DNA of 64,000 nt from Raja brachyura (lineage: Eukaryota), in assembly GCA_963514005.1 (NCBI GenBank), contig OY740809.1, forward strand, positions 17,298,001 to 17,362,000, in the 5' to 3' direction. The position numbers were made by a program, and so were the translations under genes. Positions 7,685-64,000 of this stretch are shown in pieces (the first letter of the stretch is position 1; every line of letters starts with the position of its first letter). The notes beneath the pieces are model-generated. The model was not told the DNA's origin and ran no database searches. It worked only from the letters and a program-made list of their open reading frames with translations.

Positions 7685-7737
<53 letters not shown>

Positions 7738-27740: not shown

Positions 27741-27884
27741 AGATGATCGAAAGTTTATTCTGTGAAGAAAATGCTAGGGACAGCCAGCCAAGAAAGTACT
27801 GGAATGGTCAAGTTAAGAAGTTGTAAAGATAGGGATGAGGATTTAAGCCAGAGACAACTCGAGCCAGCTAATGAGTGGGGAACT

Positions 27885-28155: not shown

Positions 28156-28254
28156 AGTGGGGTTTCCTTAAATGGGTGGAAGCAGGATTGAGTAGAGTGC
28201 CTGCATGATCAGATAAGGTTACCCAGGTTCAAAGATAGCACAGAGATTATGAGC

Positions 28255-30005: not shown

Positions 30006-30086
30006 CTTGAGAAAAACACTTTCAATGCTATACTTCAGAAACCAAGGTCAATTTGCATATGCATGAGAATAATACCACACAATGCC

Positions 30087-37114: not shown

Positions 37115-37449
37115 ATACTTTTCCCGGTTTCCCTCAAAATCATGGACACATGTACCTGTACTCCTGGATTCTTCTGCTCCCCAACACTCCCAAGGGCCCT
37201 ACTGTTCACTATGAAGGCCCTGTTCTCATTTGACTTCCCAAAATGCAACATTTCACACTTGTTTGAATTAATGTCCATTTACCATTCCTCAGCCTGCTTA
37301 CCCAGCTGATCAAGATAACATTGTAACTCTTGATAAACACCTACACTATCTGTGTCACCTGCAAACTTACTAATCATGCCTTGTACATTCTCATCCAATT
37401 GTTGGTATAAATCACAAATAGCAATGGGCCCAGAACTAGTCACTGAGGT

Positions 37450-41705: not shown

Positions 41706-42140
41706 CACCATTACTCACAGGCTTTAGTCCAAAAAATAACCTCCACCACCAGTCTCTGCTTCCTTCTACGACATCAATTCTCTATCCAGACAGCTAGCTC
41801 TTCCTGCAACCCATGCGATCTACCCTTCAGAGCAGGATACCCTCCATGTGAACCTTGCTGAAGTTCATATCTTTACATCTACTGACTTGCCTCTTGTTAA
41901 CTTTTTTGGTTACTTGTTCAAAAAAGTCAATGAAATTCATGAGACACGATCTCCCATGAAGAACCCTGTCTTTCCAAATAAATTTGTATCTTATCCTTCA
42001 AAATCGTCTCCAGTAACATTCCCACTTCCTATATTAGGCATACAGTTATATATACTTCCTATATTAGGCACATTAGGCTACAGTTCCCAGGTTTTTCTTT
42101 GCAGCCCATCTTAAATAGAGGCACAACACTTTTAGTTCAC

Positions 42141-42286
42141 CCATAAAATGACCACCATTAAGGCTTTCTTCTGCTTTGAATGAATGTTTTTTTTCTGCAG
42201 TAAAAATGCTGTTTCAATCCAAGTTGGTTTATTACTTAATGATCCATCTCTATCCAAAGGTTATCATGAGAGACTTCTCTGAAATA
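42141..42286 (-). pseudogene. CATSPERE-like pseudo-exon; candidate second coding exon of the SAP-THAP gene
   Basis: Strong acceptor ccttgttttttcag| and donor ATGG|gtgaac. ISEKSLMIT...SLSNKPTWIETAFLLQKKNIHS vs PSINSIVLS...TLGQKPVIHTVLKRKVYS. In phase 0 it reads YFREVSHDNLWIEMDH* (stop 42236-42238). Confidence 0.55.
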
Positions 42287-43299
42287 CTGAAAAAACAAGG
42301 TGATGGGTCCCAAGTCAGATGGTTTTGAAAACAGTGAGAGAAGGTTTAATTCAAAGAAGGAAATTATATATGTATTTTTAAATATAGGAGAGGAAACAAA
42401 GTTAGATTTGCAAATTAGATTTGCAAATTCAGTTACACATTCCACAGTTAACCCAAGGAGGAGGAGGAGGAGGAGGAGGAGGTCTAGCCACTCATGAATT
42501 GCAGGAATGGCTCTCTAATTGCAAAGGGAAAGGAGGCAGGGCGGAATCAATCGATTACAAAGGAGGTGCTCAATCTGGTCCTGGAGTGAGGTTAGTCTGA
42601 GGCTCTGAGTGCAACAGGGCAGTCACGGTATTCACAGGTGGGGTGTGTCTGTTCAGGAGGTGCAGATCAACCCTGTAGATCAGCCCTATTAATCTCTGTC
42701 AATATAACCTTCACCACACACATTATGCATGATACACATTCCACCATGTAATCCAGTCCGGGATTTGAGTAAGGAATGCAGTTACAAATAACAACCCTGT
42801 TCGGCCCGGTGCTTGGCAGTCTGCAAGATGATACCAGTATGTATTATTCTCTTTGCATACGTTTTAATAAAAGCTTTTATTTTATTAGGTTCACCTAATA
42901 CTTTAATGGTTTGATTACAAAATATGGTGTCAGAAGATTTAGACCACCTCTCCATTTCATTTGCCTGAATTTATTTTAATTTGTTTTTTTGTACCGTCTT
43001 CTTGCCATGGCTGGAGCCTTTCATAAACCTGACCCGCTAGTGTTTGATGGTGACCTTGCTGAACCTTGGCACATCTTTGAAGTAGAATATGGAGTGTTCA
43101 TTCACGCGGCACACCGTGATGCGCCCACTGTACAAGCATCTATTCTCCTCAATGTGGCGGGCACCGAAGCCACACTGCGGGCACAGGATTTCAACTACGC
43201 ACCAGCTGAGCTTAATGATGCTGGTGACATTATGACCCCTGCGGATCTAGCCAAGACCCAATGTGCCTCCTTAGAAAGTTCCAACAGCTATGCCAGCTG

Positions 43300-43806
43300 C
43301 GTGTTAGTTTTTTCTACTTTTTATGTTTTTTAGTGTGTTTTAATGTATGTTTTGAATGTTTCTCGGTGTGTCTTGTGTGAGGGGTTGTGTGGGGGGAGAA
43401 AAGGGGGAAACCGCTTCGGTCGCCTCCTCCACGGAGAGGCGACTTTTTCCATGTCACCTCCCCCGTGGCCTAACATCGAGGATTGGTGCGGCCTTTCCCG
43501 GAGACGTGCCCGGGGTTTCAGCTGCGGGCGCAGCGAGGACTCTTTCGTCGCAGAGCGGGCGAGCCTTCGCCGGGGCTTGCCGGAGGGGACGCTCCGTTCG
43601 CTGGCCCACGGCAGCCTGAAGCCGGGGTCTGCAGAGCTCCAGCTGGCGCGGCATCCTGGGCCCGGAATCCCTCGCCGAGGAGGGGAGCTCCGACTGCGGT
43701 GCTTCCGGCTGCAGCGTGGTGGGGACTTTAGATCTTCGACCACCGGCATGCGGCCTACACCAACCTGAAGCCGCGGTCTCCGGTGGGAAGGCACCGATTC
43801 AGGACT
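43300..43806. repeat. Unclassified GC-rich insertion interrupting Gypsy gag
   Basis: Abrupt switch from gag to T-rich then CpG-rich sequence; it is the target of the Tc1 insertion. Confidence 0.45.
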
Positions 43807-44953
43807 TACAGTGGCTTGCAAAAGTTTTCATACCCCTTGAACTTTTACACATTTTGTCACGTTAAAACCACAAACGTAAATGTATTTTATTGGGATTTTA
43901 TGTGATAGACCAACACAAAGTGGCGCATAATTGTGAAGTGGAAGGAAAATGATACATGGTTTTCAAATTGTTTTACAAATAAAAAACTGAAAAGTGTGGC
44001 GTGCAAAAGGATTCAGCCCCATTTACTCTGATGTCCCTAAGTAAAATCCAGTGCAACCAATTGCCTTCAGAAGTCACCTAATTAGTAAATAGAGTCCACT
44101 TGTGCGTAATCTAATCTCAGTATAAATACAGCTGTTCTGTGAAGGCCTCAGAGGTTTGTTAGAGAACATTAGTGAACAAACAGCATCATGAAGCCCAAGG
44201 AACACACCAGACAGGTCAGGGATAAAGTTGTGGAGAAGTTGAAAGCAGGGTTAGGTTATAAAAAAATATCCCAAGCTTTGAACATCTCATGGAGCACTGT
44301 TCAATCCATCATCCGAAAATGGAAAGAGTAAGGCACAACTGCAAACCTACCAAGACATGGCCGCCAACCTAAACGGACAGGCCGGGCAAGGAGAGCATTG
44401 ATCAGAGAAGCAGCCAAGAGGCCCATGGTAACTCTGGAGGAACTGCAGAGATCCACAGCTCAGGTGGGAGAATCTGTCCACAGGACAACTATTAGTAGTG
44501 CACTCCACAAATTGGGCCTTTATGGAAGAGTGGCAAGAAGAAAGCCATTGTTGAAACAAAGCCATAAGAAGTCCCATTTGCAGTTTGCCACAAGCCATGT
44601 GGGGGGGACAGCAAACATGTGGAGGAAGGTGCTCTGGTCTGATGAGACCAAAATTGAAGTTTTTGGCCTAAATGCAAAACGCTATGTGTGGCGGAAAACT
44701 AACATTGCACATCACCCTGAACACACCATCCCCACTGTGAAACATGGTGGTGGCAACATCATGCTGTGGGGATGCTTTTCTTCAGCAGGGACAGGGAAGC
44801 TGGTCAGAGTTGATGGGAAGATGGATGGAGCCAAATACAGGGCAATCTTGGAAGAAAACCTGTTAGAGTCTGCAAATGATTTGAGACTGGGGCGGAGGTT
44901 CACCTTCCAGCAGGACAACGACCCTAAACATACAGCCAGAGCTACATAGGAAT

Positions 44954-47004
44954 CAGGCACGTGCCGTCAGGGTAGGCAAGGTAGGCACTGCCTACCCTGA
45001 CTAAAATTATGAAATGGCAATTTTTAAATATAAATAGTAAAGGCATGGGAGAATTATGCCTGTCTAAGAGATCGATCTCTTAGGTAGGCATAATTCTCCG
45101 TGCCTTTCACCCGCAGCGCTTGTAACACGGGAAGCTCTGTGCAGCCCCCGTGCCGTCAACGCTGCCTGAGCCGTCAGATTCAATGGAAGCTGAAGGCAGC
45201 AGAAATTCTGCCTTTGCAGCACTGCGCATGCGCATCATCTTTCTGCGCATGCGCATCGCGAGTTTCTTGGCGGGATGTTCAAATATGGATTGCCATTATT
45301 TTAATAGTATCTTAGCAAACAAATGGAGAATGGACTTAATGTAACAATAATGTGGTAAGTGCATTTCTTTGTGCTTTATGTTTTTAAATACTGTAGTTCC
45401 CGGGGTGGGGGGAGAGCTCCGTTCACAGTGTTTGGGCAGTCTGGCGTTGTGAAGGAGGGGATTGGGGTCAGTAACCCACTTGCCACGCTCCGGTCTGAGT
45501 GCAGGTGAGATGGGACTAGGTGAGAGTAAGTGTTCGGCACGGACTAAAAGGGCCGAGATGGCCTGTTCCCGTGCTGTATTGCCATATGGTTTTATTGTGG
45601 CCGGGGAGTGGATCAGCTCGGGTGGTAGCCGCAGCACTCCGGGCGCGGAAAGCAGAACTGGCCGCCACTTCCGCGGAAGGAAGCAGCTCGGGTGACTGCG
45701 AGTGGCCGCCGGCACCCTGCCACTTCAGCCCCTTCTGCTGGTCCCCACTCACCTCTGGCAGTGCTCTCCGTCTGAACATCTCTCACCTGCCGCTCGCCGG
45801 CCGGCTTCCCGCAAATCTTTAAATTCCGACAGCGCGTTCACGGATCCAGTTTAGGTTACTTGGCTGTGGGAATTTAAGGATTTGCGGGGTGCGGTTGACA
45901 TGAGCGAAGGGCAGGTGAGAGATGTTCAGACGGCGAAGGAGATAGGCGACGTTTCGGGTCAAGACCCTTCTTCAGACTGAGTCTGAACATCTCTCACCTG
46001 CCGCTCGCCGGCCGGCTTCCCGCAAATCTTTAAATTCTGACTCAGTCTGAAGAAGGGTCTCGACCCGAAACGTCGCCTATCTCCTTCGCCCCTTAGATGC
46101 TGCTGCACCCGCTGAGTTTCTCCAGCTTTTTGTGTAACCCCCATCTCTCACCTGCCGTTCGCCGGCTTCGCTCATGTCAACCGCGCCCCGCAAATCCTTA
46201 AATTCCCACAGCCAAGTAACCTAAACTGGACCCGTGAACGCGCTGTCGGAATTTAAAGATTTGCGGGAAGCCGGCCGGCGAGCGGCAGGTGAGAGATGTT
46301 CAGACTCAGTCTGAAGAAGGGTCTCGACCCGAAACGTCGCCTATCTCCTTCGCCCCTTAGATGCTGCTGCACCCGCTGAGTTTCTCCAGCTTTTTGTGTA
46401 ACCCTCGATTCTCCAGCATCTGCAGTTCCTTCTTTAACACGGCAGGTGAGAGATGTTCAGACAAAGAGCACTGCCAGAGGTGATCAGAAGGCGCTGAAGA
46501 GCAGCCAGTTCTGGTGTTGGGTCCCGGTGGCCGTTCGCACCCGAGCTGCTTCTATCCCCGGAAGTGGCGGCCAGCTCTGCTGTCCTTGCCCGGAGCGCTG
46601 CGGCAGCGGTGAGTGAGTTTGATATGATCTCTGTCCCCCTCCTTCTCAAAACCTCTCCCTTCTCGCATACTTAACCCCTGCCGCAGGCTCCCCACACGGT
46701 GTGAAAGGAACTCCCCCTCCAATTGGACCCTTGAATTAGTATTGTCATTCCATATGATGACAACTGATTCAACGTCCCGATGTGCTCCCATTTTTCCCAC
46801 CATCTCTCCACCTGCCTTCATCCTCCGTCCCCCACCCATTCAGTAATTAAAAAATGAAGGAGATTTAGAACCCTTGGGGAAATTGAATTGTCACTTATTT
46901 TTTATTGTTTACGAAGAGAACAATCTGCGCATGCGCGGTTTTAAGATTTCTTTTGAAAGCCGGCTGACTGCCTACCCTGAGTAATTACTCACGGCACGTG
47001 CCTG
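44954..47004. mobile_element. Non-autonomous hAT element with internal palindrome
   Basis: 14-bp TIR caggcacgtgccgt; perfect 8-bp TSD ataggaat (44946-44953, 47005-47012). Confidence 0.92.
46047..46074 (+). ncRNA. Minimal type I hammerhead ribozyme motif in a Penelope terminal repeat (second copy 46311-46338)
   Basis: CTGAAGA-A-GGGTC-TC-GACCC-GAAAC-GTC: core, perfect stem II and self-complementary ACGT in place of stem III. Stem I is weak in this copy. Confidence 0.55.
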
Positions 47005-50000
47005 ATAGGAATGGTTTAGATCAAAGCATATTCATGTGTTAGAATAGCCCAGTCAAAATCCAGACCTAAATCCAATTGAGAATCTCTGGCAAGACTTGAA
47101 AATTGCTGTTCACAGACGCTCTCCATCCAATCTGACTGAGCTTGAGCTATTTTGCAAAGAAGAATGGGCACAAATTTCAGTCTCTAGATGTGAAAAGATG
47201 GTAGAGACATACCCCAAAAGACTTGCAGCTGTAATTGCAGCGAAAGGTGGTTCTACAAAGTATTCTCAGGGGGGCTGAATACGTTTGCACGCCACACTTT
47301 TCAGTTTTTTATTTGTAATAAAATTTGGAACCCATGTATCATTTTCTTTCTACTTCACAATTATGCACCACTTTGTGTTGGTCTATCACATAAACTTGGT
47401 CATGGAGCACCACAGATTATTTTCACGTAACCAGAAGTAAGATGAACCAGTCGAATCCAACACCAGTTCCCCGAAGAACATAGCTGGCAGGTGCCAGTTC
47501 AGTGATCTACGCGACAACCTCATCCATAGCAGACCCGTGTACGGCATACTGAATGACAAGGTGAGAGATGAGTTACTCCGGGACGAGGAGCTCACTCTAG
47601 TTAATGCTTAGCGCTCCTGTCAGGTTGCTGAGCTAACCAACACCCATACCAAGTCTCTAGGACCCGGACCCCACTCCGCATATAGTGTCAACGCGTTCTA
47701 CAGATTTCTGCGCCAAGTAAAGCTACCACCAAAATCATTAATAACTGCTCCAATTGTGGTGGCTCGCATACAGGGGGATCCGTGAAACGTGCCCCACTTT
47801 CGGGAGAAGTTGCCATTATTGTAAAAGGAAAAAAAACTTTATTCGTTGCTGCCGCTCTCGTGGGAACACAGTCGAGACAAACCAACCTCTCCACTTTCTT
47901 CAGCCTACACTTTCCAACGAGGACCTAGAGGACATTCCCACACCTGCAGAAGCAGAATTGCTTGAGCACCAAGCTGCCAGCTTCAGCATACATTCCTTGT
48001 CAGATCCGTCATGCAAGCACAAGGATCCTATAACAACGCTTCAGATCACCAATGCCAAGGTTATTGCAAAAATCAACACCGGGGCTCGCTGTAATGTTTT
48101 GCCCTTATCGGATTTCAAGAGAGTTTGAAAATTCAAAGTTGTTAGAAAAACCAGTGCCAAATTACTCCCATTTGGGTTAGGAGAGGTCCACCCGGTCGGA
48201 AGAGAGGAACTGTACTGCCATCTGGCTTCGGTTGTTTACAACCTCGACTTTTTCATTGTCCGTGGGAACATAGCCCCTCTGCTGGGTATCGATGCATGCC
48301 ATGACCTGGGTTTGGTCACCTTCGGCCAAACTGTACACCAGCTCACCCTCACCCCCAGCCTGCTCAACAGTTCCTCTCACAGTACAAAGACCACTTAGCA
48401 AACTTCCCCACATGTACACCATTGTAACTGACCCAGAGGTCACGCCAGTTGTCTGCACCCCTCACCAGATCCCGCTTGCTATGCGAGACCACGTTCAGAA
48501 CGAACTTAACAGGATGGAAACTCTGGGTGTGATTGCCCATGTCAGCGATCCATCTGCCTGGGTCTTGAACATGGTTGCATCAACCGAGAAAAACAAAGAT
48601 GAAATACAAATTTGCATCAATCCCAAGGATTTAAACACTGCCATTAAATGCCCACACCACCCGATGCAAACGGTGGAAGAAATCGCGGCCAACCTGGGAA
48701 CAGTAACAGTATGCTCAGTCCTGGACGCAAATAACTCATTCTGGCAGATTCCACTAGACCATGAATCCTCCATGTTGACCACGTTCGGCACACCTTTCGG
48801 ACGTTACAGATTTTTACGCATGTCATATGAAATAAACTCGGTTAGTGAGGTTTTTCAATGCACCACGGAGTAGTTATTTGCTGGATACCCATGTGCATTC
48901 ATGGTAGATGACATTCTAGTTGCTGGACAAAATGTTCCGGGTCAATTAAGTGAACTATGTGGGTCATGTATTCACCAATAAAGGTCTCAAACCAGACCCC
49001 TTGAAAACCATTGCCATCAATGAGCAGCCAGTGCCCACGGATGTGACCGCATTACAACGGTTTATTGGCATGGTAAACTACTTGGGAAAGGTCATCCCAA
49101 ACTTCAGCGAATTCTCAGCCACACTAAGGCAACTGACTCACAAAGAAACAGACTGGTCCTGGCACGACCACCAGCAGAGGGCGTTTGACACTCTTAAGCA
49201 GCAGATGTCCTATGCTCCAACACTCGCTTACTTCGATGCCAAGCTGCCTGTCACTTTAACTTGCAATGCCTCGCAATACGGACTGGGATCAGCCTGTCTC
49301 CAGAATAATGGTAGAGGCCACAGACCCATTGCCTCTGCCTCCTGCACCATGACTGACACAGAACAGTGCTACGCACAGATCGAGGAGGAACTGCTAGCTG
49401 TGGTCTTTTCCTGCAGGAAATTCAATGACTTGATTTTCAGCAACACTGTCAGTGTTGAACTGACCACCAGCCACTGGTCAGCATTCTGAACAAGCCGATA
49501 CACGCCACCTGTGTGCCTTCAACGTATGATGATGGTATTACAAAGGTACGACATTAGACTGGTTTACAAATGCGGAAAGGAAATGCACTTAGCTACGCGC
49601 AACACCTGCCAGAAACACCTGTCGGACAATGATGGTTTTATTGTTAAGATGGACTCCTACCTCCCATCCTCGTGTCTAGACGATCTGGCAGCACAAACAG
49701 CTGCAGACGACACTATACAGTCACTCTCCTCTGTCATCCGACACGGATGGCCAGACAAGCAATACATGCTACCGCCCTTGATTTGCCCAATTTACCCTGT
49801 TCGTGATGAACTGGTACTTCAGGATGGCATTGTGGTGACAGGACACAAGGCAGTTGTTCCTGCATCTCTGCAAAACAAGTATTACGATGCCATCCACAGG
49901 GGTCATCCCAATGTGGAGGCAACGGTTCTGAGGGCAAAGAGTATGTTCTTCTGGCCTGGAATGTCCGACTTTGTGCGTGAGAAAGTTGATTCCAGTGCGG

Positions 50001-51728
50001 TGTACAACAGCCTAGTGTCGCACCAACCCAAACAGCCCCTTCTCTCGCACCCCACACCTGACTTGCCATGGTCCACAGTTGCAATTGATCGACTTACTCC
50101 GCAGTCCAACCTCAGCCATGGTTGTTGAAAAGCAGGCACGCCACTTTCCTGTCCACGGGTCTCCCATTCATCTTCTCTCTGTCAATGGCAGCCAATTCAC
50201 CAGTCAGCATTTCAAGAACTTCATTAAACGCTGGGATTTTCGCCGCATCACCAGCAGCCCCGAGAACCCGCAGTCCAATGGGTTTACAGACCGTGCGGTG
50301 AGAAGTGCCAAACAAGTGATGGAACGGTCCCATCAGGCCTGTTCTTACGTCTATCTCAACGTACTCAATTTACGGAACATTTCTCGTGATCCGATTCTGG
50401 TTTCTCCTGCCTAGCACCGTATGTCAAGGCAGACTCGCACTATGCTACCTATAGCAAAGCAGATGTTGCAACCACAAATTCGTGCCCCGGTGGTGATCCA
50501 GGCAAAACTACAACAGCGACGCGATACCCAGAAACAATACTATGACAATTCAAGCACACCGCTTCCGCCTCTGACCAAGGGACAGGTTGTCCGCTTGCAA
50601 ACGGCAAAAGGCTACGACCAGCTGGGCGTCAGTCAAGGCACTGCTCCTGCGCCTCGCTCTTACCTGGTCAGTGTTGATGATGCCACCTTCAGACGTACCT
50701 GACAACACCTTCGCCCCATCAATGAGCCAGTGCCGCCTCGACACCATCCTGACTACACAGCTGTGTCTCCCTCACAGTCCAACGATTCCAGTCCCATGGT
50801 CCCACATCTGCCTGCTGACCCCAGTCCAGATGCTTTGCCTGCTGCTTCGCCTCCCCGACCGCTACCGCGGTGTCCATCCTCACCCTCAACACCGTTCAGA
50901 CCTGCGGTATCACTCCCTTCTCCTACTCAATCTCCGGTGAAGGGAGTAAACGGTGGATACTGTATGCACGCAGGTCGCGTCTGCAGGCCGAATCCAAAGT
51001 ACCTTTGAACTGTCTGTGAACTGTTTTCTCACTTGCTGCTCTCAGCACACAGTCCATGAAGTAAAGTGCACTCTCCTCATATTTAAGAAGGAACTGCAGA
51101 TGCTGGAAAAATCGAACGTAGACAAAAATGCTGGAGATGCTGGGTTTCTCCAGCATTTGTGTCCACCTCCCTCATATTGGTGTTTTTCTATCTACTCCAC
51201 TATAAGCTTGTTTAATTATAATTTGTTCTTTAATTGTTATATGGTTATATGGTTATAAGAGTCCAACCCCTGTCCCACAGTGCGAGTCCACCCACGAGTT
51301 ATCCCGACTTAAAACCAAATCACACTCATGTTAATCACGTAGTATGAACGTAGCGGGAACATCGGAGCTTGTGGACGTAACTTAGCGACTCTTAACGCTA
51401 ACGGCAGTTACACGGGAAACGTGTTTACTCGTGAAAAATTTTCAACATGTTGAAAGATTTTCATGAGTCAAATATACTTTTGAAGGAAAATATTGATACT
51501 TTTAAACTCGTTGTAAATCCGTAGTAGCCCATGAGTTTACCATATTAACTCATGGGTTTGGCCTGAGTGCCAGAAGTGACATGTTGAAGATTAGTCAGAT
51601 CTTAATGGAAAATGTTACAGTGAGCTAACAATTCATTTTCAGTGAGTAATGCCTTTCAATGTTTTATGCCAGACCTTGAACAATTGCAGTTCAAATGGAC
51701 ACCCGTGCCTTAGTACAGCATAGCTTTT

Positions 51729-52187
51729 ATAACCATATAACCATATAACAATTACAGCACGGAAACAGGCCATCTCGGCCCTTCAAGTCCGTGCCGAACA
51801 ACTTTTTTCCCTTAGTCCCACCTGCCTGCACTCATACCATAACCCTCCATACCCTTCTCATCCATATGCCTATCCAATTTATTTTTAAATGATACCAACG
51901 AACCTGCCGCCACCACTTCCACTGGAAGCTCATTCCACACCGCTACCACTCTCTGAGTAAAGAAGTTCCCCCTCATGTTACCCCTAAACCTCTGTCCCTT
52001 AATTCTAAAGTCATGTCCTCTTGTTTGAATCTTCCCTATTCTCAAAGGGAAAAGCTTGTCCACATTAACTCTGTCTATCAAAAGCTTGTCCACATTAACT
52101 CTGTCTATCCCACATTAACTCTGTCTATCCCACATTAACTCTGTCTATCCCACATTAACTCTGTCTATCCCACATTAACTCTGTCTA
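51729..52187 (-). mobile_element. 5'-truncated CR1 with a 20-bp tandem array at its 5' junction
   Basis: TRGH.FRIKG.RFR...FFTQRVV.VWNELP; repeated ccacattaactctgtctatc at 52060-52187. Confidence 0.9.
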
Positions 52188-52439
52188 GATGGTTTAGTAT
52201 TACTAACTCCAAGGGAAGGGCACGAATCAGTTAGCGATGCAGCTCAATCAAACCAAACATTCAATGCAGGACAATGTTGAGTTGATGCAGCGTCATTGAG
52301 TTGTCCTGGTTTTCTTTGGAATGGGAGTTAAACCTTTCTCAGATGCAACCTTAATGTGATTAATTTCAAGTTAACGAGGCAAATGCAACAAGTTTGAGCA
52401 ATTTTGGAAGGATTGTTTCTTGAAACAAACTGCTCTAAA

Positions 52440-52720
52440 AATTTGAAGGAAGGAATTGCAGATAGTAGTTTAAACCAAAGATATACACAAAATGATGGAC
52501 TAACTCAGCTGGTCAGGCAGCATCTCTGGAGAAAAGAAATAGGTGATGTTTCAGGTCGAGATCGTTCTTCAGGCTGGGTCTTAGCCTGGAAAAGGGTCCC
52601 GTCCCGAAACGTCGCCTACTCCTTTTCTCAAGAGATGTTGCCTGGCCCGTGGAGTTACTCAAGCATTTTGTGTCTGTCTTTGGTTTAAACTAGCATCTGC
52701 AATTCCTTCCTTCCAAACTT
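52440..52720. repeat. Palindromic pair of Penelope terminal repeats (similar ones near 1200-1385, 11925-12080, 13373-13572, 51085-51165, 53015-53180)
   Basis: gaaggaattgcagat...cagcatctctggag mirrored by gagatgttgcct...catctgcaattccttc. Confidence 0.8.
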
Positions 52721-55700
52721 CCTTCCTTCAAATGTCACCGATTTCTTTTCTCCAGAAATGTTGCGTGACCCATTGAGTTAACTCGGCAGATGGACAGAGA
52801 AAACAAAAGGTGAGTAAAAAAAGGTTAGCCAAGTCTGCCTGTCAGGAATGATCCCCTGATGCTGGAGACACCTGTGGGAATCTCACCTTGGCCTTTGGAA
52901 TAGAGCGACCAACAACCAATATTTCCAGATTTCCAAGGGCAGGTCTCTTCCCTTGTTTATGTGCCTTTCACATTCCGGGGGGGGGAGGGGGTTGAGCGAA
53001 TGCATTCCTGTTTGTAGGAAGGAACTGCAGATGGTGGTTTACACCAAAGACAGGCACAAAAAGCTCAGCGGGTCATGCAGCATCGCTGAAAAAAAAGAGT
53101 CTCGACCCGAAGTTTTGTGTATTCCTTTTCTCCAGAGATGCCATCTGGCCCGCTGAGTTACTCCAACTTTTTGTGTCCATCTCTTGTTTGAATAAGATTA
53201 TTTGAAAATGAAATGATCCACACCAACTCTTAAAAATAAATCGCCTTTATGTGAAAAATAAACCAATTGCAAAACTTTGCCAACAGGAAGGGGAATATCC
53301 TTTGGGGTCGTTCGCTACCAGCCGCAGTCACGGATAAAACAGTGCAGGATATGATAACATGGCCAATGATGCAGGTGTGAGGCGAGATCCCCGAAATCTG
53401 CCGACCGATGAATAAACAGGGGTGAGAAATGTACTAACCGTCAGGCTATATATTGAAAAATCCCAAAACCCGGGTTCAGTGAGTTAAAAAAAGTACATTA
53501 GACAAGAACCCTTTACAAATAGCGAAGCTTTGCGTATGGCAGCGCACACACCTGGTGAAATGTCCCAAAGGGCGGAAACAGGCCATTCGGCCCACTGAGC
53601 CAGCCGTCAAACACTCATTTACCTCAATCTCATTTCTGCCCGCATTCACATCAATTTCCCACCTGAGCCCCATTCGACCACTCACCGACACATCGGGGGA
53701 AGGTGACAGTCCTTCAGGTGTTTTTGCCATTTATTTCTCATCGAGTCATGGGTTCATAAAACACAGCAAGTGTTGAGGGGAGCATTCATACAACAAAACA
53801 GCGTGCGGGGTGCGAAAGGGAGCACTTGGGGGAAACTGCATAAAATAGTACCGGAGGTTAGAATCGAACCCGGGTCCCTGGAGCAGTGACACACGCTGCT
53901 CAAGTGAACGTATAATAAAATGAATGAGGACAGACAATAATCAGATTAATTGAACTCATCAAAGGGCGTAGATTTAACGTGAGCAGCAAGCGGAATAGAG
54001 GGCATCTGATGATTTTTTTCTCAACCCAGTAAGTACTGTAGTCGTAATCTGAGAACACGACGGAGGGAGGTTTACAAAGTATATGGGCCAGAACTGGAAT
54101 CACGGTCAGGAAGGCTATGGCTGGAATGAACATGGTGGGCGGAGGACCTGTTTCTGTGTTGTATGAACCCATGACTCGATGAGAAATGAGTGGCAAAAAC
54201 ACCTGAAGGATTGTGAGATAATGATCATGGATGACTTTTAATGGAAAGTCCACACACACAGATAGACAGCCAAGAAGAACTTCATATCTACACTCAGATG
54301 GACTGGCAGATGGAGGAGATAGGAGTTGGGGAAAGAGAGGAAAAGCCCAAGAGAAATACAGGGAAAGGGATATTGCAAAAGACAGGATGGAATCCTGAAA
54401 CGCATGTCAAAACATTTAAAAGGCATAAACACAGAGCAAATAGGTGCAGGAGTAGGCCATTCGGCTCTTCAAGCCAGCATTGCCATTCAATATGATCATG
54501 GCTGATCATCCAAAATCAGCACCCGTTTCTGTTTTCTCCCCATATCCCTTGATAACCTTAAGAAATTTAAACAGGGGAGGCTTTTTATAGTAAATAAAAA
54601 CAGCATGACATAATTTTTATCATGGGATGATTTTTCCACACATCGGGAATCGTTGTTGGCTCAAGAGTAACTCGGGAGAGGAATTTGGTAACTCGGGAGA
54701 GGAACTTGGTACAGTGCAGAAATTAGAAGTAAACGGCAGACTTAGACATACACGTGGGAACTCGTTGAAACTCGTGAACATAAACTTGGAATCTTGTAGA
54801 AAACCACGAGTTTGATTTTTTCTTTAACTTGGGATAACTCGTGGGTGGACTCGCACCGTGGGACAGGGCTGTCAGGATGTAGATCAACCACATTAATCTC
54901 TGTCGATTTAACCTTTGGCACACATATTATGCATGATACACATTCCACCATGTAATCCAGCCCGGGATTTGAGTAAGGAATGCAGTTACAGATAACAACC
55001 CTGTTCGTCCCCGAGTTTGGCTGTCTGCAAGATGATACCCGTGCAGCAGCATGTATTATTCTCTCTGCATACGCTGTAATAAAAGCTTTGCGGTTCACCT
55101 AATACTTTGTAATGGTTTGATTACAAAACAGGAGGTCTGATGATAAGCAGGGTGGGGAAGTTAATCAATTCAATTGCTGAAGTCATTAGACCAATAACAA
55201 AGAGGCCTGGCTCAATGAAGGGGATGGATAGTGTTCAATCCATTTGGAGAGTGTGATTGGGGTCAATTGTGGGATGGTGAGAATTGGTATGGTTGCAGAG
55301 GATTTCATGGGAATGGGATGGTTTCAGTCATCTTGTAGTGGTGGCGATGCTGCGGTGGACAGAGTACATATTAACAGCAGAAGCAATGCATTCTTGGGGC
55401 ATATTCAGTCCAAATTGGAAAGGTGGAGAGTTTGGTCAATTTTTATGTGTGGGTCTGAAGAAAGATCTCGACCCGAAACGTCACCCATTCCTTCTCTACA
55501 AAGATGCTGCCTGTCCTGCTGAGTTACTATTTTGTGACTATCTTTGATGTGAACCAGCATGTGCAATTCTTTCCTACACATGAACTACTCACAACATGGA
55601 CCGCATCAATTGTACCCATCCCTGTCCATAAGGATTGCTGGAAAAAGACTTGGCTCTTGGATTCCAAATCCTACATCCTCCAGCTGACAAATTTCCTCAT

Positions 55701-55995
55701 GGATCTTGAGTCCCAGTCTGCTGATATGAAAGGTAATGATCTTCTGCTGGAACATTAACATCTCAATGTATCTGTGATGGACCCATCGCCTGAAAGCAGG
55801 GTTGTCATCCTCAGAACCACACCACACTGCCCCTGCCCCTCCTCGCCATTTCCTTTAACCCATGGTGTGGGAATATAATTTAAAGCTGTCAAGTTCTAAA
55901 TATTTAAATTGAATTGATTTCCTACATTTTTATTAAATTCATTCCAATGTATACAAATTCAACTTGTAGTAATGCACTTTTTTGGATGATTCTAC

Positions 55996-57070
55996 CATAG
56001 AACATAGAACAGTACAGTGCAGCAACAGGCCCTTTGGCCCACAATGTCCACGTCTAACATGATGCCAAATTAAACAATCCCTTGAGCCGGCATCTGATTC
56101 ATATCCTTCTCTCTGCATATTCATGCACCTATCCCGAAGCATCTTAAAACTCACTATCTTACCTGCTTCCATTACCACCAACGCTGGCAGTGGGTTCCAG
56201 GCATCTACCGCTTTCTGTGTAAAAGAAAACTTGCCCTCCTTTAAACTTCTCTCTAACCCCAAAGCTATGCCCTTCCAGGCTGACATTTCTCCCCTGGGAA
56301 AAATATGCCGACTGCCTGCTCTATCTGCGCCTCTCAATTTTATAAACTTCTCAAGTTCCCCCTTAACCTCCAATGTTCCAGAGAAAACAATCCAAGTTTG
56401 TCCAACCTTTCCTTAAACCAATATCCTCTAATCCAGACAGCAACTTGGTAAATCTTTTTACATCCTCTCCAAAGCGTCCACATCATTGTGCAACCATATC
56501 TGAACAAAGTTGCCCCTGATAATGTGACTCTTATACTCAAAACCCTGACCTATCAAGCCATAGATACCAAATGCCTTCTTTCCCACCCTATCAGTGTTGC
56601 TACTTTCAGGAAGCTATGGCTTTGGACCCAATTATCCCTCTGTGTATCAATTATGTTAAGGATCCAGCTATTAACATTCCCCTTACATATGATCTCCCAA
56701 CTCGCACCTTCTCAGATTAAACATCATGTGCCTTTCTCTGTAATTGATATTTCCTGCTGTATCCTTTGTCAGCCATCTTCGCTATTTACAACTCCACTGA
56801 TATTCAAATCATATGTAAACTTACTAACCAGTCCATTGACATTTTCATCCCAGTCATTTCTATATATCACTACAGCACAAGTCCCAGCACTGATCCCCAT
56901 GGAACACTACAGGTCGCAGAGCACTGGCAAGAATACCACCCTTCCACCACAAACCGCTGGCTTCTGTGGATAAGCCAGTTCTGAATCCAAACTACCATGT
57001 CATTGTTAATGCTGTGAACCTTAATCTACAGGATCAGCTTGCCATGAGGGACCTGGTCAAATTGTCAACT
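55996..57070 (-). mobile_element. Old CR1 3' fragment
   Basis: ERLDKLGLFSLE..RLRG; F.QK.V.AWN.LP; (ttctatg) tail. Confidence 0.8.
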
Positions 57071-57174
57071 CTCCTATCGGATTCCTGTTCTGTAAAATGT
57101 AGGCTCAAATTACATAGAGTTTAGCCACAGAACAGCATGAATAAGTTCTAAAAATTCAAACAACCTGACAATAC

Positions 57175-57849
57175 CTGGGTTCCTGTATCTTGTCCAACAC
57201 ACAAGTAAGGATGCTTTGGAGTTGATTGAAGCAATGCCCTTGCTGAAGAATTCATTCTTTGATATCTGTTTGTAAAATCAAGATAAGATGGCCCTGCCAT
57301 GTGAACAGATTGGATGGCAATCTTGTTGGTTAAGTCCATGGCTTCCTCTGAACTCTCTTTGGACCAGAAGGTTGGATGTGATGTTGCTGCTTTAGCTGCA
57401 GGGTCCATGTGTAAATGTGGAATGTAGTCCGGAGAACTCGGCTCAAAAGACAGCTGGCCACAACTGAAATGCTGTCCACATATCCGAGAGTACATTGTTG
57501 GTGTCCAGCCATTTCTGGTAAGCTGGATAGCTTTTGTTATGGCTGCAGTGTGACTTCCTTTCTTCCTTATGACGGTGAACCACCGAATGTGGGTATCCTT
57601 GCCTCGACGACTTCGGCATCCAGCGACACTGCAGCAGTCTCCGTGGCTGTTTGAACGTGAAGTGGGTTTCTGAATAATTACAGATTTTGGATCAATTCCA
57701 AGCCATTGACAAAGAACTCTTTGGAAGTACACTCTCGTTCCTGAAATTGGAAGCCCATATTGCTTACAGAGCTCTCGAAGTTTGGCTTTTGGGCCTTCCC
57801 TTATCTGCTGTATGATTAATGATATTTCCTCTGCATTTATATTATCCAT
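57175..57849 (-). CDS. Intact coding exon for a SAP-domain + THAP (C2CH) zinc-finger protein
   Basis: 225 uninterrupted codons from ATG 57849 to a phase-0 donor (CAG|gtattg, exon end 57175). Acceptor ctttgtttttcag| lies 9 nt upstream (exon start 57858), with an in-frame TAA before the ATG. SAP-like KLRELCKQYGLPISGTR..F..VL; THAP CSVAGC...W.P...RICGQHF...PDYIPHL. Confidence 0.85.
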
Positions 57850-57939
57850 TGTTTAATACTGAAAAACAAAGCATCAGCACAATTAATAAATTCTTCATTA
57901 CCAACATCCTGTTATGCAGTGATCATGATCCAGTCTGTC

Positions 57940-58330
57940 ACTAAAGATGCAATTCTGCAGCATTACTTCTGATCAGAGAGAAGTGAAATCAAGCTGAGAA
58001 TATATTGGTGCCATTTTCTGATCAAATGTTAAACCAGGGAACCTGATACTTTCCTGGGCGATTAGTAAAAATGCCTAACAGTATTTAAGAATAATGGAAG
58101 AGTTGTCCCCTGTGTTCTGGCCAATATTTTTCCACACAAGTAACATCCAAACAACAAATTAGCTGATCATTGTCACCTTGCCCTCTGTGGAGCTTGCTGT
58201 GAAGAAAATGGCTGCCACATTGTTTTAATTACAACTGTGACATCATTTCAAAAGTATTTCTGCAGCTGCATAGAACTTTTGGACATTGAGATTCTAAAAG
58301 TGCTTTAGAAATGCTAATCTTTATTTTTCT
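57940..58330 (+). mobile_element. Ancient Deu-domain SINE (SacSINE1/AmnSINE1-like)
   Basis: gagttgtcccctgtgttctggccaatattt...gagcttgctgtg...aaatggctgcc...ttacaac.gtgac...ttcaaaagta resembles the Deu core and tail. Confidence 0.7.
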
Positions 58331-58344
58331 TTATTCAGGGTATC

Positions 58345-58450
58345 AGAGCAGTTCAAAAAGAATCATCTGGTTGGCCTACATCCATTGGGCATTGATAGGA
58401 GAGACAGGATTGTAAGTGCAATGACAGTCCAGGAGAGGGATAATCATAGT
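58345..58450 (-). pseudogene. CATSPERE-like pseudo-exon (TVWAYDPES region)
   Basis: ACT GTC ATT GCA [frameshift] TAC AAT CCT GTC TCT = TVIA/YNPVS, at the expected position in exon order. Boundaries are approximate. Confidence 0.4.
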
Positions 58451-59060
58451 TCTCTTGGCATGAAATGAAAGCTGATGATTTGTATATTTCTAATTGGGTT
58501 TCACAGTTGAATTGCTTGGAAGTAGCCAGTGCAGAAATTAGATATTAATTGTATGAAAATCTTCAAATGTAACAAACTGCTTTAGTTAGAACTTGCCTGC
58601 TTGGTGAAATATAAAGGTTCCAAAAAATGTAAGAATTTAAATGTTAATCTTTAAACTAGTTAAATGTTTTGTGGGTTAGCTTTAATTTATATTCTTGGTC
58701 AGAATCATTGAGTGTCAAATGCTGTGTTAAGCAAAGTCAAGGAATGAGCAGTAACTTTTTCCACACAAAGGGTGGTGGGTGTATGGAACAAGCTGCTAGA
58801 GAAGTTAATTGAGGCTGGGTGTACCCCAACATTTAAGAGACAGTTAGACAGGTACATGTCTGGAGGGATATGGACCAAGCGTAGGCAGGTGGGACTAGTG
58901 CAGCTGGGATATGTTGGCCAGTGTGGGCAAGTTGGGCCAAAGGGCCTGTTTCCACACTGTGTCACTCTATGACTCTATAAGAAAGGTTACATCTTACAAG
59001 GGCAATAAATTGTGAATATTATACATGAACACTGTCATTACATTTGTGAATTTTGCTTAC

Positions 59061-59300
59061 CGTTAAGATATGAAAGAAAGTACCGTAGAATTATTGACAA
59101 CAATTACTAGTTTCAAGGGAATTGGCGGGGCTGAAAGTTCACATTCATTCATGTATAATAAGGGTGGATATGAACGTGTGCCAGGGCCAGTTGGAGAACG
59201 TAGAATGGGGAATATCACAGGAGCAGTAATCAATAAATTATCCAAAATAGTGACATGCTATAACATGCTCCTCCCAAGTGCTGTGATTTTTTTTGTTTAA
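59061..59300 (-). pseudogene. CATSPERE-like pseudo-exon
   Basis: TWEEHVIAC...PILRSPTGPGTRSYPPLL...VIVVNNSTVLSF vs EWSVPETC...TELRCSSPGVHAIKPIV...LFVESSHTCF. Strong donor ACG|gtaagc. Confidence 0.55.
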
Positions 59301-59549
59301 TCCTGATCTCCAGTGCTTTCTGTCTGAAGTCTTCACATTTCTCTGTGACCACATGGCTTTCCCCTGAGGCCTTACAATTTCCTACTCCGGTTTCATACTT
59401 TAATGATGTTTCTGTAAATTGCCATTGTGTTGGTATGTGGTAGAATCAGAGAGGGAAGTGTTGATAGGTAGATGGGGAGAAAAACATTTGATTAGTGTAA
59501 ATGGGGGGGGAGAGAAGGTGCTCCTTCTCTCTCCCCCCCCCCCCCCCCG

Positions 59550-60872
59550 CGGATTGGAGGGTAGCTAATGATATCCCACTTTTTAAGAAAGGTGGGAGAG
59601 AGAAAACAGGGAATAATAGACCAGTTAAATTGACATCAGTGGTGGGGAAGACGCTGGAGTCAATTATTAAAGATGAAATAGCGGCACATTTGGATAGCAG
59701 CAACAGGATTGGTCCTAGTTAGCATGGAGTTGCGAAGTGGAAATCATGCTTGACTAATTTTCTGGAATATTTTGAGGATGTAACTAGGAAAATGGACAAG
59801 GGAGAGCCAGTGGATGTAGTGTACCTGGACTTTCAGAAATACTTTTTAGAGCACATGATATTGGAGGTAGGCAGGCAGTGACTAGTGGGGTACCGTAAAG
59901 CTCGGTGCTTGGACCGCAGCTATTTACAATTAATGATTTAGATAAAGGGATTAAAAGTAACATTAGCAAGTTTGCAGATGACACAAAGCTGGGTGGCAGT
60001 GTAAACTGTTATGCTAAGAGGATGCAGGGTGACTTGGACAGGTTGGGTGAGTGGGCAGATGCATGGCAGATGCAGTTTACTGTGGATACATGTGAAGTTA
60101 TCCATTTTGGTGGCAAAAACTTTGGTGTCAAGTTGCGAAAAGGGAAAGTACAATGAGATCTGGGGGTCCTTGTTCATCAGTCACTGAAAGTAAACATGCA
60201 GGTACAGCAGGCAGTGAAGAAAGCAAATGGCATGTTGGCCTTCATAACAAGAGGAGTTGAGTATAGGAGCAAAGGGGTCCTTCTGCAGTTGTACAGGGCC
60301 CTAGTGAAACCACACCTGAAGTATTGTGTGCAGTTTTGGGCTCCAAATTTGAGGACGGACGTTCTTGTTATTGACGGAGTACAGCGTAGGTTTACGAGGT
60401 TAATTCCCGGGATGGCGGGACTATCATATGTTGAAAGAATGGAGCGACTGGGCTTGTATGCATTGGAATTTAGAAGAATGAGAGGAGATCTTATTAAAAC
60501 ATATATGATTATTAACGGATTGGACACACTAGAGGCAGGAAATGTACTCAATGTTGGGGGAGTCCAGAACCAAGGGCCACAGTTTAAGAATATGGTGTAG
60601 GCTATTTAGAATGTAGATGAGGAGGTTAGAACTTTTTCACCCAAAAGGTTGTGAATCTGTGGAATCCTCTGCCTCAGAAGGCAGTGGAGGCCAATTATCT
60701 GGATGCTTTCAAGGGAGAGTTAAGTAGAGCTCTTAAAGATATCGGAGACAATGGATATGGGGAAAAGACAGGAACAGGGTACTGATCGTGGATGATCAGC
60801 CATGATCACAGTGAATGGCTGTGCTGGCTGAAAGGGCTGAATGGCCTACACCTGCAACCATTGTCTATTGTC
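59550..60872 (+). mobile_element. CR1 RT to 3' end fragment (additional CR1 tail at 58750-58980)
   Basis: DWRVAN..PLFKKG...N.RPV.LTSVVGK; KFADDTKLGG; LV.PHL.YCVQFWAP. Confidence 0.92.
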
Positions 60873-61329
60873 CTTGTTGCACCCCTCTGACTCCACTGCT
60901 GGAACTCCCACTCGTTTTCTGGACTTGCTGCCAATCCCAAATGGACAGAAGGCTCCTGGTGTGATCCATCACGAATGGGAACTTTGCAGATTCAGTTGAA
61001 TCACATTTGGATTCAGGGTTGCATTAATGGGGCAGGAGCCCTGATCAAATCAATCAATTCAAAAAGCAAATACCAACAGAATCAAGTTCTATAAAAGAGT
61101 CAAATTCCTTCAGCATATTATACAACTCTCTGTACAAGTTCTATAAAAGAGTCAAATTCCTTCAGCATATTTTTACCACAGTCACATTTCCAAGTAGCAA
61201 ATTTTACAACTTAAAAATGGACATATTACATTGTACTAAAAATGTTCCTCAGAGAACCAAAACTCTTAGTAACCCTAAAATTATTGAGAAAGAGGTAATG
61301 TCAAATCAAAGCTTTGAATCCAAGGAACC

Positions 61330-62460
61330 ACAGAATTATTGTGCACATACATTATGCCCATTGCGTGTATGCTATCTCCTAACAACATATTCAATCTCAC
61401 TCACGCCTATGTGGCCAAATTCTGCACTAACTCAATTAACAAGTTTGCAGATGACATCACTGTAAGGTTCCGGTTTAGGTTTATTTTGGTCACTTGTATC
61501 AAAGCTTTGTTTTGCATGCTGTCCAAGTGGATCAGATAATAATAATAAATAAATACAATCAAGACAAACTCAATTGCAATGGGTAGAGCAAAGGGGAAAA
61601 TACAGAATGCAAAATATAATTCTCAGCATTAAAGTGCATCAGTTCCACTGGCAAAGTCCAATGTCTGCAATGGGGTAGAGGTGAATTAGCCAGAAGGACT
61701 ATTCAGAAGCCGTTCTGAAGTATGTGCACTTTCAAGCTTCTATACTTTTTTGCCAAGGAGAAGGAGGAATGATTATGGTGGAACAAGTCTTTGATTATGT
61801 TGGTTGTTTTTCCGAGGCAACTTGAAGTGTGGATGGAGTCAATGGTGGTGTGCCTGGTCTGTGTGATCAACTGTGTAGGAAAGAACTGCAGAGCTGGCTT
61901 AAATTGAAGGTAGACTCAGAATGCTGGAGTAATTCGGCTGGATAGGCAGCATCTCTGGAGAGAAGGAATTGGTGACGTTTCAGTCTGAAGAAAGACCAGA
62001 GCTATTGTGAATAATAGGATTCTAACATAGGAGTCCTGTTGTCTTGGTGTTCAAGAAATGAGTTTAGGGCCAGGGAGATTGTGTCTGCTGTGGACCTTTT
62101 GCAATGGCAAGCAAACTGCAGTGGATTCGGACCAACTGGGAGGCTGGAGTTAATGTGCACCATCACCAGTCTCTTGAAGCACTTCGTGATGGTGGCTCTT
62201 GAACCCGCTGGACATAATGGGCTGGATCTCAATCAATGACAAGACAGAGCACAGGAAAAAGATGGAGCACTTGGTAGCAATGATGCTACCTCTTCCTCTA
62301 AGAGCTATGGACTTGGACCCCAAGATCTCTCTGTACATTAATACTGTTGAGTGTCTTGCAATTCACTATATACAGTACATTCCCCTCACACTAGAAGCAC
62401 AAGTGTCTACTTTCCCCTCACACTTAAAGTGTCCTTCCAAAGTGCAACTCCTCACACTTG
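61330..62460. mobile_element. Mosaic of old Rex-Babar, Penelope and CR1 fragments
   Basis: KFADD at 61441; KCFKRLVM...PLQFA on the minus strand at 62030-62200; Penelope terminal repeat at 61875-62000. Confidence 0.55.
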
Positions 62461-62513
62461 ACAAAACAGGTAAAAGTGCAAGCTGAGAGTAGGTGAAGAT
62501 TGTTAATATTTAC

Positions 62514-62629
62514 CATGTGAATTCATGAAAACTATTTATTGGACGAACAAATTTACAGCATCAACCTGTGACTTGAGATCTCAATGTAAACCACGTCAGG
62601 CAGGGTTTCAGGAGATTCGGTCTGACCAT
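62514..62629 (-). pseudogene. Possible first coding exon remnant of the CATSPERE-like pseudogene
   Basis: Reads MVRPNLLKPCLTWFTLRSQVTG*CCKFVRPINSFHEFT, signal-peptide-like with an in-frame stop, followed by donor TG|gtaaat. Similarity is weak. Confidence 0.3.
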
Positions 62630-63558
62630 ATCCTCGCATAGAGCCAATTTGAATCTGCTCTGTTCACATGCTTTAGGTCTTAATCATTTCATAAAACAGA
62701 GGAAAATTTACTTTGGTCACTATCTAAAAACAAAATATTTCAGAACTGATTTCACAGAAGCACAATGCAAGAACAGTGATAAAGTTGTACAGTAAATTCC
62801 TATTTGTGCGTTTCCCAAAGACTATTAAGCGACAATGTACCCCCATGGTGTTGTGTTAAATGGCGAATTAAAATGACAAGAACATTAATTGTGAGAAACG
62901 AAAAGGGAGCAGTAACCTAACTTGGTCCTTGTGACACGGTGCGACTTCATAGAGTAGACGAAGAGTAGTTAGTAGCCAAAAATAAGAGTTATAAATATGA
63001 TAGTTACTAACATATCCAAACTGAAATTCAGAAGAAACATTTTTACAATGTAAAATGTTTGATTGTAGAACTTGCTATCATGGAGTAGTTGATACTATAT
63101 AGCATAGAAGCAACATGCAAATAATATTTAAAACAATATACCACAGTCAAAATTGAGGGTTTTATTTTGAAAAGCATACTTTGTGAAACATAGATAAAAG
63201 TCCAGATAAGGATATGAGAGAAGGGGACATAACAATATTTGTGAAGGGTTAAATGAAGTAAAGGGGCTTGATTGGAACATATCTATTTCATTAGACTAGT
63301 CAGGCTCATTTTTATGTCCAGCCAAATCGCTGCCTTGCCTTATTATCTCATATTATATCTCATATTATATCATATCTCATATTACCGATTATGCTCCAAC
63401 CATTTAGTAATTGTTTGATAATATCTATTCACCATCAATTACATTAATACCCAAAGTAAATAAATAATTCTAATTCCTTGCACAAAGCATGTTTATTGCA
63501 GAGGAGAGTATATAAGGAAAGTACCTGAGATTCTAAGTCGAATTAAATTAGATTATTA

Positions 63559-63865
63559 AGCCGCTGTCCCACTGTACGAGGTAATTCACGAGTTCTCCCG
63601 AGTTTCCCCTGATTTGAACTTGGAAAATTATGGTAATAACCATTCATAGGTACTCGGGGACTATCGTGGACACTCTCCGCACTGTTGAAAAAACTTCACG
63701 AGCTTACCGCGTTTCCCGAGTACCTGCCGTTAGCGTTACGCGCCGCTAAGAGATGTCCTGAGCTCCGAAGTACCCACTAAGTACATTCTACGTACTTACC
63801 ACGAGTTTGATTTTATTTTAACTCGGGAGAGCTCTCGGGTAAACTCGTATAGTGGGACAGGGCCT
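63559..63865. mobile_element. PIF/Harbinger MITE
   Basis: TIR agccgctgtcccact...agtgggacagggcct; TSD TTA on both sides. Confidence 0.85.
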
Positions 63866-64000
63866 TTAGTTGGCACTGAAATACAATGTTTATCGTGAAC
63901 ATTTAGAACTCAAACTAAAACATTGTGTCATATTCTTCACACGCATAGGCCAATTCTTTTAATGATATGTAATGTAATATAGCAGTATAAATTAATGTTT

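Follow-up and report, generated by a model that had tools for sequence, protein, structure and literature searches.

What is a single intact exon doing in the middle of a long interval filled with transposon pieces? The DNA analysed here (the window) is a 64,000-nucleotide stretch of the Raja brachyura genome (assembly GCA_963514005.1, contig OY740809.1, here C31), C31:17298001-17362000. Its minus strand carries a stop-free open reading frame of 225 codons, 57849-57175, that encodes a SAP-like domain followed by a THAP zinc finger. The original prediction placed this exon inside a dead gene for the sperm channel subunit CATSPERE (CatSper epsilon), with the CATSPERE promoter and exons serving as its untranslated leader and with a splice from its donor to an acceptor at 42286. 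Our analysis leads to a different gene. The window lies between SFPQ and ZMYM4, and we propose, with a probability of about 0.8, that the SAP-THAP exon serves ZMYM4 of cartilaginous fishes as an alternative first coding exon.

The exon itself had been described as a lesion-free frame with an acceptor, a stop before its own ATG and a phase-0 donor, and all of this is borne out by the sequence. The acceptor lies at 57858, the ATG at 57849 with an in-frame TAA two codons 5' of it, and the phase-0 donor has its GT at 57174. A search of the whole 2.7-Gb genome returned a single match. The exon and its parts are placed as follows (coordinates without a prefix are those of the window; nt, nucleotides; aa, amino acid residues).

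57175..57858, minus strand: SAP-THAP exon (unit 1), 684 nt, with a 9-nt leader that holds the TAA and 225 codons; the proposed alternative first coding exon of ZMYM4.
57685..57828, minus strand: SAP-like helical domain, aa 8-55, drawn from Pfam, predicted helices, structure matches and conservation.
57400..57636, minus strand: divergent THAP zinc finger, aa 72-150, with C73, C78, C124, H127, F128 and P144 kept.
57175..57399, minus strand: linker, aa 151-225, less conserved by identity counts across species.

To which gene might the exon belong? The whole ZMYM4 model of Pristis, 89% identical across the SAP-THAP exon, maps to colinear open exons on the same strand (C31:17274596-17196438). The acceptor of ZMYM4 exon 2 is also phase 0 and lies at C31:17274596, outside the window and 80,578 nt past the SAP-THAP donor, so that the donor is in phase with it. 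The short first exon of ZMYM4 (63 nt, within CpG-rich sequence, C31:17297043-17296981) is found about 960 nt before base 1 of the window, and 18 of the 21 residues that it encodes are identical to the short ZMYM4 N-terminus of Pristis. On the other side, SFPQ exon 1 lies on the opposite strand, 30 kb upstream of the SAP-THAP exon. SFPQ adjoins ZMYM4 in other vertebrates as well, as part of the ZMYM4 synteny block (PMC3212892; this and the papers below are cited from excerpts). With SFPQ upstream and an intact ZMYM4 downstream, the window is thus the SFPQ-ZMYM4 interval, and the sequence on both sides of the exon would be intron.

1..57174, minus strand: window part of the inferred 80,578-nt intron, which spans the short ZMYM4 first exon, is filled with transposon pieces and contains 42286-42141.
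57859..64000, minus strand: window part of the putative upstream intron or introns, toward a 47-nt exon (C31:17368383-17368337) and the SFPQ CpG island.

Is the exon joined to ZMYM4 in other species? NCBI models were sorted by their N-termini within three clusters listed in part (15 of 24, 15 of 19 and 15 of 17 members), and statements about models refer to the members listed. The exon is present in 15 species and is joined to ZMYM4 exon 2 in 10 of them, five rays and five sharks. The joint is direct in Pristis, Hemitrygon, Hypanus, two Mobula and Mustelus, and it passes through a second SAP-THAP unit in two Chiloscyllium, Heterodontus and Heptranchias. Both long and short starts are listed for 6 of these 10 species, and in the fused models the exon is succeeded by MYM zinc fingers and by TRASH, QRICH1 and DUF3504 domains. 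The search for longer proteins gave eight, all from cartilaginous fishes and five of them named ZMYM4; the length-bound search went no further than 2000 aa, and an unfused representative can conceal a fused form. The junction of the exon to exon 2 is supported in 10 species by the models of others, and for Raja brachyura we infer it. In Mobula hypostoma, three isoforms (P0172, P0176 and P0181) have the SAP-THAP exon separated from ZMYM4 exon 2 by nine additional residues, from a micro-exon or a later donor.

Mapped sequences bear on the splice as well. Read mapping took in 4 of 13 listed runs and was swamped by repeats, with 15 joints listed and 1,882 more. The exon is matched at about 98% by contigs from a related organism, and these matches end at the exon edges. 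One contig, of 500 nt, covers 57174-57653 and has 20 unmatched letters past the donor; the match of a second stops at 57174, and that of a third at 57859, where 29 letters remain. For the minus-strand contigs the record coordinates were assumed to run in the record's own direction, and the plus-strand contig is free of this assumption. The match ends one intron base (G) past the donor, in line with a next exon that starts with G and then A, as does ZMYM4 exon 2, and not with T, as does the segment at 42286.

The sequence of the exon protein has changed little. In the THAP part (aa 62-150), 13 sharks and rays have 85-88 of 89 residues identical; for the chimaera, whose lineage split from the elasmobranchs about 420 million years ago, the count is 83 of 89. 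In the SAP part (aa 8-55), 39-45 of 48 residues are identical across 14 species. The linker (aa 151-225) is looser, with 40-58 identities per 66-75 aligned residues in sharks and rays and 23 of 58 in the chimaera. Between Pristis and Mustelus, 138 of 143 residues are identical over aa 8-150, to be compared with 165 of 170 in DUF3504. Judged by these identities the SAP-THAP module is as constrained as the ZMYM4 core, which points to purifying selection, and a module so well conserved must be needed for something. The claim of a single-copy, intact exon under strong constraint thus holds at the level of protein identity across 14 species.

A second unit, about 48% identical to unit 1, is present in seven species. 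Both units fall into a single clade in which chimaera copies of each are found, so that the duplication predates the split between chimaeras and elasmobranchs. Unit 2 is absent from the models of all six ray species; it is also missing from the Mustelus and Pristiophorus models, where it may merely be skipped. In Raja brachyura it was found neither in 102 kb around the exon nor by genome search. Among the best 150 of 182 matches in 1.84 billion representatives there was no close relative outside cartilaginous fishes, and the matches from other organisms cover the THAP part only.

That the exon encodes a SAP-like domain and a THAP domain, as predicted, is supported by Pfam matches and by fold. 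Pfam places SAP at aa 22-39 (expect value (E) 7e-4, 19.6 bits) and THAP at aa 73-129 (E 4e-4, 21.5 bits), both below the gathering cut-off of 23.9 bits, and the two-unit homologues of sharks and chimaera exceed the cut-offs for both domains. The best match by sequence to a solved structure is THAP1 (E 0.002). An AlphaFold model of aa 1-161, built on a 72-row alignment, has a predicted local distance difference test score (pLDDT) of 85.5, against only 34.5 for a single-sequence model of the exon protein. The predicted layout is a three-helix N-terminal domain (helices 6-18, 21-30 and 39-50; pLDDT 81-89), a loose linker and a THAP fold. VIA-align gave THAP1 as the top structural match (Z 6.6, root mean square deviation 2.8, 78 aligned), and the top four Foldseek rows were all THAP domains, none of which reaches E<=0.001; since the alignment behind the model was built from THAP relatives, the fold match is not independent of the sequence match. 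SAP chains match the model at Z 3.4-4.4, a range common among small helical folds, and Atlas searches for the SAP part gave matches of 0.78-0.79, which lie below 0.9 and serve as leads only. The C2CH zinc ligands C73, C78, C124 and H127 correspond to C5, C10, C54 and H57 of THAP1 and are kept in relatives, and two of the four invariant THAP residues are retained, F128 (F58) and P144 (P78). SAP domains attach to DNA or chromatin and show little preference for sequence.

Where did the THAP part come from? We scanned 44 relatives, picked mostly by length from the best 150 of 182 matches. DDE_Tnp_4 or HTH_Tnp_4 was found in 17 of them (13 with DDE_Tnp_4, four with HTH_Tnp_4 alone) and a P-element domain in none; six longer and three short further relatives, also scanned, had no transposase domain. 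The order THAP, helix-turn-helix (HTH), DDE is the layout of ISL2EU transposases (PMC4482050). In a tree, the two units cluster as a single clade (100/99), nested in a group with support of 97/90 that also contains four transposase THAPs, and they are set apart from the THAP loci of the genome itself (a usable row came from 13 of the 30 fetched loci). The parent element was not found among the relatives scanned or the THAP loci of the genome. The original prediction had called the exon transposon-derived and, from the domain scan and the tree, its THAP part probably descends from an ISL2EU/Harbinger-like transposase.

The genome holds at least 112 THAP-bearing loci, many with stops. One of them, L090, has a DDE_Tnp_4-like region that is 48% identical over 217 aa to such transposases. 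Harbinger-like elements were reported absent from sharks or elephant shark (PMC4482050, PMC9179366); contrary to these reports, they seem from their sequence to be present in this fish.

Several observations weigh against our proposal and its parts. The NCBI models are automatic predictions with read support unseen, stand-alone exon models occur in 5 of the 15 species (Narcine, Cetorhinus, Rhincodon, Pristiophorus and Callorhinchus), and no fused model was seen in a chimaera. The mapped contigs belong to a related organism and are RNA by guess. Among the contigs and the 15 joints listed, none was seen to connect the 57175 donor with ZMYM4 exon 2; that exon falls outside the mapped stretch. In the one raw-read RNA run the depth over the exon is below 0.5, with too few reads to interpret, and in one bin the reads solely have the orientation that antisense RNA would give in a stranded library. 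In the THAP domain, I94 and I104 occupy the positions of P26 and W36 of THAP1, so that the set of four invariant residues is incomplete. Of these two positions P is variable (conserved in 40 of 68 relatives) and W is not (65 of 68), and the exon lacks the W, as does unit 2. In THAP1, mutation of P26 or W36 abolishes DNA binding (PMC3479173). Given the lost tryptophan, we would put the chances for and against sequence-specific DNA binding by this THAP domain at about even. As for origin, the tree was built on 85 columns, with outgroups chosen by their likeness to the query and without named host THAP genes, and SAP is joined to THAP in none of the 44 scanned relatives, which leaves the origin of the SAP part unexplained.

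Could the exon instead belong to a separate small gene upstream of ZMYM4, as the stand-alone models in 5 of 15 species would allow? Such a gene would encode a short SAP-THAP protein (SAP-THAP-SAP-THAP in sharks), ended by a poly(A) site within the intron or by a last exon of its own, and the fusions would be read-through. In keeping with this, the Cetorhinus model and the Chiloscyllium punctatum prediction have a few residues beyond the unit-2 donor and then a stop, and in Raja brachyura read-through past the SAP-THAP donor ends eight codons on. However, the stand-alone tails are mutually unrelated; that of the chimaera matches reverse transcriptase, and those of Narcine and Pristiophorus have no match under E 0.4 in this locus. 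The same exon stands at the fused junction in 10 species, sharks and rays alike, and the phase-0 donor is retained. We consider a separate gene unlikely, and both forms may coexist. Far less credible is an ordinary transposon fragment with a frame that is open by chance. The abundance of THAP loci in this genome and the transposases among the nearest outside relatives would suit it, but the exon is single copy, only 2 of the 30 fetched THAP loci match it, and those weakly (best E 3e-4), and the 83/89 identity to the chimaera is conservation that we count as refuting this explanation. The original prediction had named many dispersed copies with terminal inverted repeats as evidence that would speak against it; there is one copy, and no terminal inverted repeat lies close to the exon among 25 inverted repeats listed of 53. 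Of the features that mark a DNA transposon as active or recent, a high copy number, terminal inverted repeats (among those listed) and a catalytic domain, the exon has none.

The dead-CATSPERE model, in which the exon would use the promoter and exons of that gene and be spliced to 42286, is very improbable in our judgement. The same strand does have segments bounded by AG and GT, at 59130-59061 and 42286-42141, and the proposed splice adds up as stated (241 aa in total, with a stop 95 nt before the 42141 donor); the splice itself is unsupported. Its acceptor, described as strong, comes 134th among 3811 AG sites when these are scored by a crude consensus with generic frequencies, and 18 AG sites that score at least as high lie between it and the SAP-THAP donor. 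The peptide encoded from 42286 follows the exon in none of the listed homologues, and the contig break suits a next exon that begins with G. Neither predicted junction, 59061>57858 or 57175>42286, is among the 15 joints listed, which does not by itself prove absence. No joint for the upstream segment is among them either.

59061..59130, minus strand: candidate non-coding exon, with a strong donor ranked 28 of 3524 and a weak acceptor ranked 1708 of 3811; no CatSper similarity.

The CATSPERE-like pseudo-exons on which the model depends were not found by Pfam, tblastn or profile search. Pfam gave no CatSper family in any of 12 stop-masked translated frames from 61501-64000, 58001-59500, 41901-42500 and 52001-57100. 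Five CATSPERE proteins of cartilaginous fishes, fetched via an exon on contig C8, were used as queries and as a profile. In the window the best tblastn match had an E of 0.17 and the best profile domain scored 0.0 bits over 1272 six-frame pieces; on C8 the same profile scored up to 277 bits. A comparison of the window with 350 kb of the C8 locus by blastn and tblastn gave chance-level matches alone among the rows listed. We count the dead-CATSPERE part as refuted. The locus is that of SFPQ and ZMYM4, so that the capture of a CatSper promoter and exons as untranslated sequence is unsupported, and so is the replacement of a sperm channel subunit, as CATSPERE sits on C8 with open exons.

The C8 gene was traced with the Narcine CATSPERE protein, which gives 17 colinear minus-strand stretches at C8:78.617-78.843 Mb and is covered over 847 of 1007 residues. 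There are just two stops, both at match ends, and the exons are otherwise open; residues 1-73, 149-165, 707-728 and 757-801 are without a match at the locus. CATSPERE is located on C8 with open exons, and we make no claim that the gene is complete. The CATSPERE beta-propeller and immunoglobulin-like families led to contigs C8 and C1456, and the C-terminal family shared by CATSPERD and CATSPERE led to C32 and, weakly, to C8. An inverted copy of the last CATSPERE exons adjoins the C8 gene (C8:78522973-78542718, plus strand), and a diverged copy of the middle exons lies at C1456:32000-79000 (minus strand); these extra copies may represent either true duplication or a haplotype in the assembly. 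On C32 (5373123-5378197, plus strand; L022-L025), four open exons of the shared C-terminal family are probably CATSPERD.

The 42286 segment was also tried as a decayed second SAP-THAP unit and rejected: a frameshift-tolerant profile scored 26, with a reversed-profile control of up to 50, and the anchored score ranked 2810 of 6071. As repeats or paralogues, 58230-58600 and 42100-42420 were rejected with one genome match each, and both look like unique intron sequence.

How would the exon be used as a first coding exon of ZMYM4? Transcription would start upstream, probably at a CpG island common to SFPQ. The SFPQ CpG island is placed at about C31:17385500-17386500, and the CpG-island stretch 5' of SFPQ at about C31:17385400-17385920 is a candidate bidirectional promoter for the long ZMYM4 transcript. 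The transcript would pass one or more short non-coding exons and enter the SAP-THAP exon, and translation would begin at its own ATG. A 47-nt exon with AG/GT ends and an internal ATG (C31:17368383-17368337, minus strand) lies 12.5 kb upstream of the SAP-THAP exon; all 15 of 15 residues are identical to the upstream peptide of the whale-shark model, with a second, weaker match 150 nt on. It is likely a strongly conserved 5' exon, by this match, and perhaps carries a regulatory upstream open reading frame. The upstream peptides of the Heterodontus, chimaera and Pristiophorus models had no convincing match here. The short ordinary first exon of ZMYM4 would be skipped, and the SAP-THAP donor would be spliced in phase 0 to exon 2, giving a ZMYM4 isoform some 1,880 aa long in which SAP and THAP precede the MYM zinc fingers and DUF3504. 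In evolutionary terms, the THAP part would have been acquired before the chimaera/elasmobranch split and duplicated in tandem, and the second unit then lost in this genome.

At the promoter of the short ZMYM4 first exon, about C31:17297050-17297220 (minus strand), several TGACGTCA palindromes stand in a row, which we take to be CRE-like (cAMP response element). Within the window, a little-decayed non-long terminal repeat (non-LTR) retroelement occupies 33515-36489 (plus strand), with a 504-codon frame that matches reverse transcriptase (RT) followed by frames of 126 and 386 codons. Two broken LTR-type retroelement pieces with RT-RNase H matches lie at 31255-32250 and 47745-51008 (both plus strand), and a Tc1-type transposase piece (HTH_Tnp_Tc3_2), multicopy by read depth, lies at 43992-45000 (plus strand). 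A run of 157 N at 3152-3308 is outside the SAP-THAP exon.

What might such an isoform do? ZMYM2, ZMYM3 and ZMYM4 are described as members of a histone deacetylase (HDAC) co-repressor complex (PMC3212892), ZMYM4 is SUMOylated and binds B-MYB (PMC7242444), and in the frog it is needed for the expression of cranial genes and for cartilage of the craniofacial region (PMC10579616). In the simplest model, and as its most likely function, the SAP-THAP module would anchor the co-regulator scaffold of ZMYM4 on DNA or chromatin: SAP would bind regardless of sequence, and THAP would supply specificity. A bolder and rather doubtful possibility is that cartilaginous fishes have in it a transcription factor of their own, built from two domesticated transposon parts, an ISL2EU-type THAP plus SAP on the Crypton-derived ZMYM4, in which THAP would work without W and lead the scaffold to specific DNA sites, and that the loss of unit 2 in rays changed the targets. 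Such sites would be old transposon ends or developmental enhancers. If this were true, the isoform could bear on the skeletal traits of cartilaginous fishes, given the role of Zmym4 in cartilage, which is speculation.

For the present, the analysis corrects a false lead, in that no CatSper subunit has been lost or replaced at this locus. It points to a likely host-transposase fusion in a vertebrate group outside the tetrapod survey of such fusions, and the exon offers a direct test of a THAP finger without W36 and of the redirection of a co-regulator by an added DNA-binding module. We found no published description of SAP-THAP-ZMYM4 in the open literature or in the five supplementary files of PMC10027918. 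The fused sequence is already present in NCBI automatic models, named plainly ZMYM4, and the surprise is limited to that extent.

The closest known system is ZMYM4 itself, of the ZMYM2/3/4-WOC family with a Crypton-derived DUF3504: the gene, the domains, the locus and the SFPQ neighbour are the same. The difference from ordinary ZMYM4 is the extra N-terminal SAP-THAP exon, in one or two units, found in our searches in cartilaginous fishes only. In the host-transposase fusions surveyed in bioRxiv 10.1101/2020.05.07.082677, a transposase-type DNA-binding domain is placed in frame with a host regulator by alternative splicing and kept under selection, as we propose for this exon. That survey dealt with tetrapods, and neither 'ZMYM' nor 'shark' occurs in its main text; in the present case the host part itself stems from a Crypton, no catalytic domain remains and SAP has been added. 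KCTD1 isoform b (PMC3212892) is similar in that a transposon-derived exon upstream of a regulator gives a longer conserved isoform, but the part captured there is a Crypton recombinase domain, in jawed vertebrates, whereas here it is THAP plus SAP, seen in cartilaginous fishes only. Compared with THAP1, other THAP proteins and ISL2EU transposases (PMC4482050), the exon has the same C2CH ligands, the F58 and P78 equivalents and the THAP fold; it differs in the Ile at the P26 and W36 equivalents, in the SAP before THAP and in having no HTH or DDE after it. ZMYM1 and ZMYM6, of the same family, are likewise fused to DNA-transposon sequence (PMC3212892). These are separate duplicates with C-terminal hAT transposases, whereas the exon described here is an N-terminal alternative exon, as proposed, of ZMYM4 itself, and the ZMYM family has acquired transposon parts on several occasions.

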